From a virus (taxonomy: Duplodnaviria > Heunggongvirae > Uroviricota > Caudoviricetes): a stretch of 19,987 nucleotides of DNA. The notes beneath the pieces were generated by a model that was given only the letters and a program-made list of their open reading frames with translations, had not been told where the DNA came from and ran no database searches. Position 1 is the first letter of the stretch, and each line of letters begins with the position of its first letter. Of this stretch, positions 7,909 through 8,868 are shown one piece after another. The translations under genes and the position numbers were made by a program. Location: positions 1 to 19,987 of IMG/VR virus record IMGVR_UViG_2541047875_000009. One strand, written 5' to 3'.

Positions 7909-8334
7909 ATGACGGCGCAAATATCAGCTTACGGGCGGCTGGTGGCTGACCCGCAGTTAAAGACCACCAGCAAGGGCACACAAATGGCGATGGCGAGTAT
8001 GGCGGTCCCCCTTCCATGCAATCAGGCAGATGACGGAACGGCGACGATGTGGTTATCCGTCCTGGCGTTTGGCAGACAGGCTGACGCACTGGCAAAACAC
8101 CACAAAGGCGAACTGGTGAGCGTGGCCGGTAACATGCAGGTGAGCCGGTGGACGGGCCAGAACGGCGAAACGAGGCAGGGATGGCAGGTTATCGCAGACA
8201 GCGTAATCAGTGCGCGAACGGCGCGACCGGGCGGCAAAAAAGGCCAGCAGGGGCAGGCTACTGATGCACTGAACAGGGCAAAGCAACAGACAGGCCAGCA
8301 CGATGATCCGTACGGGGACGGGATACCGTTTTAA
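7909..8334 (+). CDS. single-stranded DNA-binding protein-like (OB-fold SSB family)
   Basis: 141-aa ORF. N-terminal GRLVADPQLKTT and the WLSVLAFGRQAD ... GELVSVAGNMQVSRWTGQNGETRQGWQV pattern resemble the SSB OB-fold; C-terminus ends in GIPF like the SSB acidic tip (DDDIPF). Confidence 0.65.
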   Translation: MTAQISAYGRLVADPQLKTTSKGTQMAMASMAVPLPCNQADDGTATMWLSVLAFGRQADALAKHHKGELVSVAGNMQVSRWTGQNGETRQGWQVIADSVISARTARPGGKKGQQGQATDALNRAKQQTGQHDDPYGDGIPF

Positions 8335-8370
8335 TTCACAACAGCGAACAGAGTAATTACAGGGGAAGGC

Positions 8371-8868
8371 ATGACAAAGCTGACCATAAACAGAAAACCG
8401 AAGGGCATTTACGGCACGCCGCAGAAAACAGCACAGGCGGCGCAGCAGCAGAATAAAACCACATCGGCGCATAAAGTGATGCCAGATAACCAGAACACAC
8501 AGCAGAAGCTCACAGGAGCAACACCGCGGCGGCGTATGACCAAACAGCAGCGTAAAAACCGCAGACGCGTTAACCGTCTTATTGAGCTATGGCCTGAATT
8601 ATTCAGCCCGGAATCACCTAAGCCGCTTAAGGTGGGGATATTTGACGACCTGATACAGGATATTGCCGCGAGAGGTATTTCACTCGGACAGGGAACACTA
8701 CGCGCAACGCTGGCGCGTTATGTGCAGACTCCGCGCTATTACCGCGCCCTGGTAGCTGGTGGCGCGCGTTACGACCTGAAAGGCCAGCCGTGCGGCGAGG
8801 TAACACCACTACAACAGACGCACGCAGGAAAACTACTGGAGGAGATGAATGGAAATAGAAAGAAATGA
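8371..8868 (+). CDS. ProQ/FinO-domain RNA-binding protein
   Basis: 165-aa ORF. The segment [23 protein letters not shown] ... [35 protein letters not shown] matches the ProQ N-terminal / FinO domain pattern as I recall it ([24 protein letters not shown] ... RVDLDGNPCGEL in E. coli ProQ). Confidence 0.75.

Follow-up and report, generated by a model that had tools for sequence, protein, structure and literature searches.

Why should a small mobile element carry, directly beside its replication origin, both an SSB (a protein that binds single-stranded DNA) of its own and a protein of the ProQ/FinO family of RNA chaperones? The question is raised by the IMG/VR virus record IMGVR_UViG_2541047875_000009, whose positions 1 to 19,987 make up the 19,987-nucleotide stretch of DNA analysed here (the window). 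The element within it is a phage satellite of about 19 kb, of the phage-inducible chromosomal island (PICI) type and from Escherichia coli, and it is not plasmid-like. Its ssb gene and the FinO-type gene that follows are independent accessory cassettes in a slot after the origin, and both are intact and under purifying selection. The operon that holds them also contains, opposite the start of its first gene, a candidate antisense RNA on which the FinO-type protein may act. The reading developed below, a satellite replication operon in which the SSB serves replication and the FinO-type protein acts on the antisense RNA, is offered tentatively, with a little under an even chance of being right.

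Profile searches confirm that the ORF at 7909-8334 encodes a real SSB, as the initial annotation had proposed, and binding of single-stranded DNA (ssDNA) can be predicted for it. The product matches Pfam PF00436 with an E-value of 2.4e-16 (60.1 bits, cut-off 26), TIGR00621 with 61 bits (cut-off 53.95) and PHROG 44, "single strand DNA binding protein", with 4e-39. Solved bacterial SSBs are only distant relatives (1z9f comes closest, at 3e-10; 1eqq, the SSB of E. coli, reaches 3e-5), and the identity to any SSB in 50,697 phage records is at most 31.5%. In bacterial SSBs, an acidic tip ending in IPF is the site at which partner proteins are recruited; the C-terminus here reads ...DDPYGDGIPF, with the acidic tip and the final IPF, and is kept as DDPYGD(G/N)IPF across 62 alleles. 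The comparison set consists of IMG/VR loci and E. coli genomes, a scan of species-representative genomes with the FinO-type alignment having given one locus only. The 62 unique SSB alleles have a median dN/dS of 0.09, with constraint spanning the whole OB fold and the tip, and 106 of the 114 matches among relatives are full length and uninterrupted. Taken alone, the satellite SSB is routine cargo.

The ORF at 8371-8868 is likewise confirmed as a real FinO-type ProQ/FinO-domain protein, again as initially annotated, and a role as an RNA chaperone is predicted for it. Its match to Pfam PF04352 (E = 5.1e-24, 84.8 bits, cut-off 27) covers residues 64-163, and its solved relatives are the N-terminal domain of ProQ (5nb9, 2e-14, the best) and FinO (1dvo, 3.5e-11). 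Since the protein misses the NCBIfam cut-offs of both the ProQ equivalog (NF003434, 57.5 vs 127 bits) and FinO (NF010317, 56 vs 136 bits), it forms a separate subfamily. The concave-face residues R58, Y70 and R80 of ProQ, which are essential for binding every RNA tested (PMC10578477), correspond to R111, Y123 and R133 in the alignment to 5nb9. Among 14 homologues with 50-78% identity, K87, Y123 and R133 are invariant and R111 is found in 12; ProQ K35 and R69 are also conserved in the protein, whereas K54 and R62 are not, at the aligned positions. Residues 1-63 form a strongly basic tail, with a pLDDT below 50 over residues 1-50, and two tail motifs are conserved, MTxLTIxRK at the start and T-x-x-QRKNRRR just ahead of the FinO domain. 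An AlphaFold2 model built from the 14-sequence alignment has a helix-helix-helix-helix-hairpin-helix order that is compatible with the FinO-domain fold, at a confidence too low for a fold search (mean pLDDT 53).

The FinO-type gene has a median dN/dS of 0.25 over 50 unique alleles, and 86 of 98 matches among relatives are full length and uninterrupted, so that neither it nor ssb has become a pseudogene in related elements. The closest relative in 50,697 phage genomes, from Sodalis phiSG1, is 45% identical. Synonymous diversity in a sliding window over the 50 FinO-type and 62 SSB alleles shows no clear trough of the kind that a hidden element inside the genes would leave. The terminator-like matches found on the minus strand within the two genes (8264-8244, 8420-8404 and 8579-8547) have weak stems, and the coding sequence around them is rich in A and hence in T on the opposite strand.

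An ORF of 138 aa at 8849-9265 shares 20 nt with the 3' end of the FinO-type gene, and in this lineage it takes the place of the usual basic C-terminal tail of the FinO-type protein. It is a mosaic, with an N-terminal part like a terminase fragment and a C-terminal part like the N-terminus of the antirepressor Ant, and its DNA has matches in E. coli plasmids ~70-100 kb in size, where the genes concerned bear the annotation "phage antirepressor Ant/KilAC" or "terminase".

When the ORFs downstream of ssb are clustered, a single slot is seen to hold the FinO-type gene, perC, both or neither. The FinO-type insert consists of the ORF with a 36-nt spacer only, and its stop codon overlaps, in other islands, with the start of perC. 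By blastn, 1078 of 5426 complete E. coli genomes (~20%) have relatives of the FinO-type gene, at 1543 places that are all chromosomal (0/1543 on plasmids). Part of the region from ssb to perC is present in 2738 genomes.

What might a FinO-type protein bind in such an island? The minus strand at 4738-4819 carries a candidate antisense RNA that overlaps the ribosome-binding site belonging to the icd-like gene, the first of the operon, and that is well supported, by its fold and its pattern of substitutions, as a conserved, strand-specific structured element. For 4722-4824, a fold energy of -38.7 kcal/mol (z = -5.07) is obtained with the minus strand, against -26.7 (z = -1.0) with the plus strand. 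The first stem-loop (SL1), in its class A form, has invariant stems, an anti-Shine-Dalgarno CCUC and a 7-nt loop, and it reaches the start codon; the second (SL2) is a GC-rich terminator hairpin with a U-rich tail that is present on the minus strand only. In the alignment of the 32 unique class A versions, pairing holds in 99.2% of cells and compensatory change is seen at 8 of the 13 SL2 pairs, values that none of 500 shuffles reach, and register shifts drop the pairing to 35-54%. On the minus strand many of the pairs are G-U, where the plus strand would have A-C mismatches. A covariance model (R1) gives minus-strand matches only, at 70 of the 75 loci of the SSB query (plus the window itself) and at 66 of 84 other loci.

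With divergent versions added, three SL1 classes can be told apart, two of which have the anti-Shine-Dalgarno in the loop. Covariation between the classes is also seen in SL1 (pairs changing from CG to AU and from AU to UA, in 16 sequences each), and the 42 distinct sequences show 11 pairs with compensatory change in total. A -10-like hexamer lies at a fixed distance upstream of SL1 in the three classes, TGGTATGAT or TGGTATAAT in class A, TATGCT in B and TATGAT in C, and it is kept although the overlapping N-terminal coding sequences differ between classes, the hexamer falling in codons 3-5 of icd; no clear -35 of this predicted promoter was found on reading the upstream sequence. No RNA family was found when Rfam was scanned with the entire window (E up to 1) or with 4600-4950 alone (E up to 10), the lone match being a chance one to a CRISPR repeat (E = 0.63).

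Two features of this RNA bear on how it may work. The base of SL2 is lengthened by A/G-U pairs, formed by a purine-rich 5' flank with the first uridines of the tail, and an A/G-U extension at the hairpin base is typical of ProQ-type, not Hfq-type, ligands (PMC7367173). The class A loop occurs as 15 different 7-nt sequences in 56 unique versions, with the flanking stems unchanged; because a cis-antisense pair stays complementary after any mutation, such diversity would be the pattern expected of selection for altered cross-reactivity of co-resident elements. Up to 6 copies of the region are present in some genomes, and some islands carry two antisense-RNA/leader modules each, ~800 nt apart and of different SL1 classes (L015:1820-1914 and 2606-2700; L113:2282-2376 and 3068-3162).

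These elements can be joined into one mechanism. Induction by a helper phage would lead to transcription of the replication operon, and the DUF927 protein would open the adjacent origin. The island SSB would coat the unwound strands, and its ...D-x-I-P-F tip would couple it to the host replisome. The FinO-type protein, with its basic N-terminal tail and FinO domain, would be a chaperone of the FinO/FopA style that binds terminator hairpins with U tails; made last, it would bind the terminator hairpin of the antisense RNA and either stabilise this RNA or help it to pair faster with the icd leader. Less of the operon's first gene would then be translated, and the early expression of the satellite would be damped through it. 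As the chaperone is encoded in the very operon that the antisense RNA would repress, the proposed outcome is a FinOP-like negative feedback on replication-gene expression, while islands without the FinO-type cassette would rely on host ProQ. There is precedent in FinO with FinP/traJ and in FopA with Inc/repZ, both element-encoded FinO-domain proteins acting on the cis-antisense RNA of their own element (PMC9977716). Helper induction and packaging have been shown for the relative EcCIMP1 (PMC11773190), and the satellite described here is known from its sequence. A bolder version, about which we are doubtful, would have the FinO-type protein and the hypervariable-loop RNA form a FinOP/Inc-like circuit that sets the expression of the replication operon, with diversification of the loop defining "incompatibility" or immunity groups of the several related satellites that can be present in one E. 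coli genome.

Several observations weigh against the replication-operon reading. Host ProQ is present anyway, and the terminator at the end of the operon (9505-9527), with its U7 tail and A-rich 5' flank, would by its predicted structure be an equally good ligand. The FinO fold is assigned from sequence profiles, given the low pLDDT of the model, and the promoter and ends of the antisense RNA are likewise predictions from sequence. Among the loci fetched with the FinO-type protein, ~33 of the 74 assessable ones have the SSB directly upstream and ~41 are without it, the gene following a different replication gene and its origin in these remaining loci; conversely, the FinO-type gene is found in ~22 of the 80 loci fetched with the SSB and is missing from ~58. 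Since the two genes occur separately, they are not a functional pair. Exclusive co-occurrence of the antisense RNA with the FinO-type gene was also rejected, the RNA being present in islands with and without the gene; it is a backbone feature regardless of the gene, and the comparative data therefore neither tie nor separate the RNA and the chaperone. In F-like plasmids FinP is universal and finO is sometimes missing, a situation that the universal antisense RNA and optional FinO-type gene of the islands resemble, as an analogy and not as evidence. The suggestion of antisense-RNA-based control in the initial annotation has gained plausibility from a conserved cis-antisense candidate in the same operon, and the partnership of this RNA with the FinO-type protein is what we infer.

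The FinO-type gene, as a one-gene cassette alternating with perC, fits an accessory regulator directed at host or helper equally well. Such a protein would act in trans on terminator-containing RNAs of host or helper (3' UTRs, type I antitoxin RNAs, phage antisense RNAs), reprogramming the host or tuning the helper; we consider this possible, on the unlikely side. In its favour is the cassette-like presence and absence in the perC position, where SSB is followed by the FinO-type protein, PerC, both or neither and then by the next gene. Only ~22 of 80 SSB-type islands have the FinO-type gene, and the antisense RNA is nearly universal. The insert, moreover, is an ORF with its ribosome-binding site and brings no non-coding DNA with it, proteins of the ProQ family bind many foreign and host RNAs (PMC9977716), and a PerC-like protein encoded by a PICI has host-directed effects (PMC11773190). 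On the other hand, the stand-alone FinO-domain proteins of mobile elements that have been characterised, FinO and FopA, target the antisense RNA of their own element, host ProQ already covers a global role, and no candidate target in host or helper was identified in this analysis. The SSB, for its part, could be a weapon or shield in the conflict between satellite, helper and host, either as a decoy for SSB-sensing systems or as a RecA/SOS modulator that affects induction of the helper prophage. The great divergence of its lineage from phage and E. coli SSBs, the shortened linker with retained tip and the optional nature of the gene would agree with this. We nevertheless hold it to be improbable, as the gene is placed directly after the origin in a replication operon and is under strong purifying selection over the whole OB fold and tip, as for a working SSB; PADLOC found no defence-system match for the SSB, the FinO-type protein or their neighbours.

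The initial annotation had compared the gene pair to plasmid leading regions, from which one might take ssb and the FinO-type gene to be an establishment or anti-defence module that guards incoming ssDNA and damps host responses on entry. Conjugative plasmids do carry ssb in their leading regions, the SSB here keeps the host-interaction tip, and both genes are on a mobile element. This view is largely refuted by context, and we regard it as very improbable. The island is of a satellite family packaged by helper phages (PMC11773190), and the genes stand in its replication operon directly after the origin. RefSeq annotates no tra genes in the island and no relaxase, psiB or ardA, no search aimed at psiB or ardA having been made. 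The FinO-type gene is never on E. coli plasmids, the plasmid matches of its product in tblastn being ordinary finO at ~33% identity (at most ~34%), and in the one IncF plasmid examined finO follows traX at the distal end of tra and is not in the leading region. Matches to the SSB of at least 67% identity also occur in the plasmid collection, and those examined, the two best open to judgement, look like chromosomal records: H109 has a length of 4.9 Mb, and H111, at 32.5 kb, has chromosomal flanking genes and contains a PICI of the capsid-forming kind, in which int, alpA, icd, DUF4222, primase, ssb and perC are found. With this satellite context, no close plasmid kin of the FinO-type gene and two genes that occur independently of each other, the likeness to a leading region falls away.

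Table 1. Coordinates in the window of the replication operon of the satellite, its control region and associated elements.
Feature	Position	Strand	Description
ylcI/ynfO-family gene	4616-4437	-	Divergent, adjoins the control region
Control region of rightward operon	4638..4717	+	Sigma-70-like promoter TTGACG-17-TAATAT (4678-4706); three exact GTGGCTGACA repeats
Candidate cis-antisense RNA	4738..4819	-	~80 nt, predicted ends; opposite leader, Shine-Dalgarno and ATG of icd-like gene; SL1 + SL2
icd-like gene	4817..5020	+	NCBIfam NF033153, 3.7e-18; first operon gene, ATG at 4817; start region covered by candidate antisense RNA
DUF927 primase/helicase-type replication initiator	5572..7698	+	Pfam DUF927, 1.1e-46; PHROG 1139 "DNA primase", 2.5e-173; directly upstream of origin
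Replication origin	7722..7858	.	2 + 4 inverted TAACCCGC iterons (21-bp spacing on right side) around AT-rich stretch
ssb	7909..8334	+	141 aa; satellite-encoded single-stranded-DNA-binding protein; OB fold residues 4-99, short linker, C-terminal DGIPF tip
Stand-alone ProQ/FinO-domain gene	8371..8868	+	165 aa; FinO domain residues 64-163, basic tail residues 1-63
perC-family gene	9274..9499	+	Frameshifted in this copy; same accessory slot as FinO-type gene
Intrinsic terminator of operon	9505..9527	+	AGCCGGAGCAAUCCGGCU then U7, A-rich 5' flank; alternative candidate ligand of FinO-type protein

The operon to which the two genes belong runs from the promoter at 4678-4706 through the icd-like gene, two small genes, the DUF927 gene, the origin, ssb, the FinO-type gene, an extra ORF and perC to the terminator (Table 1). 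The GTGGCTGACA repeats, the promoter and the ylcI/ynfO-family gene are probably an operator/repressor switch of this operon. That ssb lies next to an origin, as initially annotated, is borne out by the iteron and AT-rich region at 7722-7858 directly upstream of it. The 210 bp separating the DUF927 gene from ssb contain six TAACCCGC iterons, 2 in one orientation and 4 in the opposite one, and the octamer is present at 13 sites in the whole window, where 0.5 would be expected. Sets of iterons on either side of an AT-rich stretch are the origin layout described for Gram-negative PICIs (PMC6092414). A second iteron and AT-rich cluster at 18301-18463, near the right end of the island, has 3 + 2 copies of TAACCCGC and is an inverted mirror of the primary origin; the 400 bp around it recur in conserved form in other islands, likewise at the right end, and among these L002 has a primary origin with different iterons. 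This cluster could be a second site like P4 ori/crr, or a relic.

The initial annotation was also right to see an integrative element. The window is 99.8% identical to an E. coli chromosome, where the element, with an integrase and att-like repeats, is located between yicC and dinD and where RefSeq annotates ssb and the FinO-type gene in the same way. It has the marks of a PICI-type island: an integrase at one end, an AlpA-type regulator (26.4 bits, cut-off 21), a primase followed by an iteron origin, a size within ~10-20 kb and the absence of a complete virion or lysis gene set. Its only virion-type genes are those for three epsilon15-like internal proteins and one small ORF. The gene order starts on the left with a tyrosine integrase, a hypothetical gene, an AlpA-like HTH protein, an AntA/AntB antirepressor, a BRO-N pseudogene and the YlcI/YnfO-family gene (minus strand). 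It continues with the Icd-like gene, a hypothetical gene, DUF4222, DUF927, the origin, ssb, the FinO-type gene, the 138-aa mosaic ORF, perC and the terminator. On the right it ends with a 68-aa ORF, three large genes for epsilon15/phiV10-like internal virion proteins and a gene-poor, AT-rich tail. Other E. coli strains carry the same backbone at tRNA-Pro, and it recurs in 160 fetched loci, most of them on IMG/VR contigs of 10-16 kb. EcCIMP1 is an experimentally mobilised PICI with AlpA, an antirepressor, Ash, primase, PerC and helper-like "DNA transfer" genes after the primase (PMC11773190).

The phage records match the window only at 9935-17666. A degraded epsilon15-like prophage was considered and rejected, as the phage matches are confined to this part and no phage record has a close relative of the SSB or the FinO-type protein; the element is therefore not a decayed prophage but a PICI-type satellite that has acquired helper-like genes. 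The cargo at 9935-17596 comprises a gene of 104 aa, which has no family match of its own, and three large genes coding for 843, 686 and ~920 aa, in a satellite that lacks genes for capsid, portal and terminase. Homologues of the three large genes are internal virion (ejection) proteins of the epsilon15/phiV10 type, one of them being lytic-transglycosylase-like. EcCIMP1 has analogous helper-like "DNA transfer" genes (PMC11773190), and an Enterobacter study labels genes in similar PICIs of 16.5 kb as "VirB/VirD4" (PMC13612085); these might be the same genes.

Some smaller features complete the picture of the island. The 12-bp att-like repeat GGTGTACATAAT occurs just left of int (at about -68; L001:14932) and at ~18852, among several TGTACA motifs, and these repeats and motifs are probably att or integrase arm sites. 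The palindrome CTGTATATAAATACAG at 19104-19119, just upstream of dinD, is probably the LexA box of dinD. The BRO-N gene (3498-4055) has an internal stop and is a pseudogene in RefSeq. An ORF of 300 aa at 3895-4797, without a family match and overlapping the ylcI gene and a minus-strand terminator, is probably spurious.

Our search of the literature turned up no study that addresses the function of a ProQ/FinO protein, SSB or antisense RNA encoded by a PICI. FinO-domain genes on mobile elements are a known theme (PMC9977716), and a ProQ/FinO gene in a PICI has been mentioned in passing in Enterobacter cloacae (PMC13612085). Both gene annotations (RefSeq) and the presence of ProQ/FinO in a PICI are already known; the candidate antisense RNA is undescribed, and a more novel lead than the genes. 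What the comparison adds for the FinO-type gene is a distinct, uncharacterised FinO-domain clade that chromosomal phage satellites alone carry and that can be detected in about one fifth of complete E. coli genomes. Both plasmids and chromosomes are known to encode FinO-domain chaperones, each chaperone with a defined RNA clientele, and a satellite clade would extend RNA control to a third class of mobile element. The regulation of Gram-negative PICIs is currently described in terms of proteins (AlpA and antirepressors); an antisense RNA over the first gene of the replication operon would offer a handle on the silence of an island and on the avoidance of cross-talk between co-resident islands. 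The FinOP/Inc-like circuit, if true, would be the first case of antisense control with the help of an RNA chaperone to be described in a PICI-type satellite.

How does the island compare with known systems? In its int, alpA, antirepressor, Ash/Icd, primase, two-set iteron origin and perC it is like the E. coli PICIs EcCICFT073, EcCIEDL933 and EcCIMP1 (PMC6092414, PMC11773190), whose descriptions in these two papers make no mention of ssb, ProQ/FinO or antisense RNA. Like EcCIMP1 it has helper-like DNA-transfer genes after the primase (PMC11773190), which unlike those of EcCIMP1 resemble epsilon15/phiV10 and not Kapi1. The FinO-type protein is like ProQ of E. coli and Salmonella in that its best solved-structure match is 5nb9 and in that the counterparts of R58/Y70/R80, K35 and R69 are kept; it differs in having the FinO domain at the C-terminus and not at the N-terminus, in being without the linker and the Tudor-like C-terminal domain, and in missing the equivalog cut-off.

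The candidate antisense RNA is alike in topology to sar of phage P22, and as with c4 of phage P1 an icd gene would be under antisense control. In P22 sar/ant and P1 c4/icd-ant, a small antisense RNA blocks translation of the first gene in an antirepressor or icd operon; sar begins within its target gene and runs to a terminator that lies in the spacer upstream, and c4 acts in trans from the same strand. The RNA of the satellite has no sequence or covariance-model similarity to them (Rfam gave 0 matches, C4 included), and neither P22 sar/ant nor P1 c4 is known to use a FinO-domain protein. The same antisense layout is shared by FinP/traJ, Inc/repZ and P22 sar/ant. Like FinO of F-like plasmids, the FinO-type protein is a stand-alone FinO-domain protein encoded by its element, with a basic N-terminal extension and with its gene at the far end of the regulated unit, and the candidate RNA is like FinP in being a cis-antisense RNA of ~80 nt with two hairpins over the ribosome-binding site of a key early gene, there traJ. 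Unlike FinO, the protein is only ~33% identical to it and below the NF010317 cut-off, it is carried by a satellite and not by a conjugative plasmid, its target would be icd-like and concerned with replication instead of traJ, and its RNA binding is a prediction here. FopA (YafB) of the IncI1 plasmid pCol1B9, a small FinO-domain protein of a mobile element, promotes the action of the antisense RNA Inc over the replication initiator repZ (PMC9977716, PMC7491321). The setting there is a plasmid replicon, and the antisense RNA of the satellite lies at the first gene of the operon and not at the initiator gene. Set beside the proposed mechanism by description and not by sequence, FopA with Inc/repZ would be its closest functional analogy.

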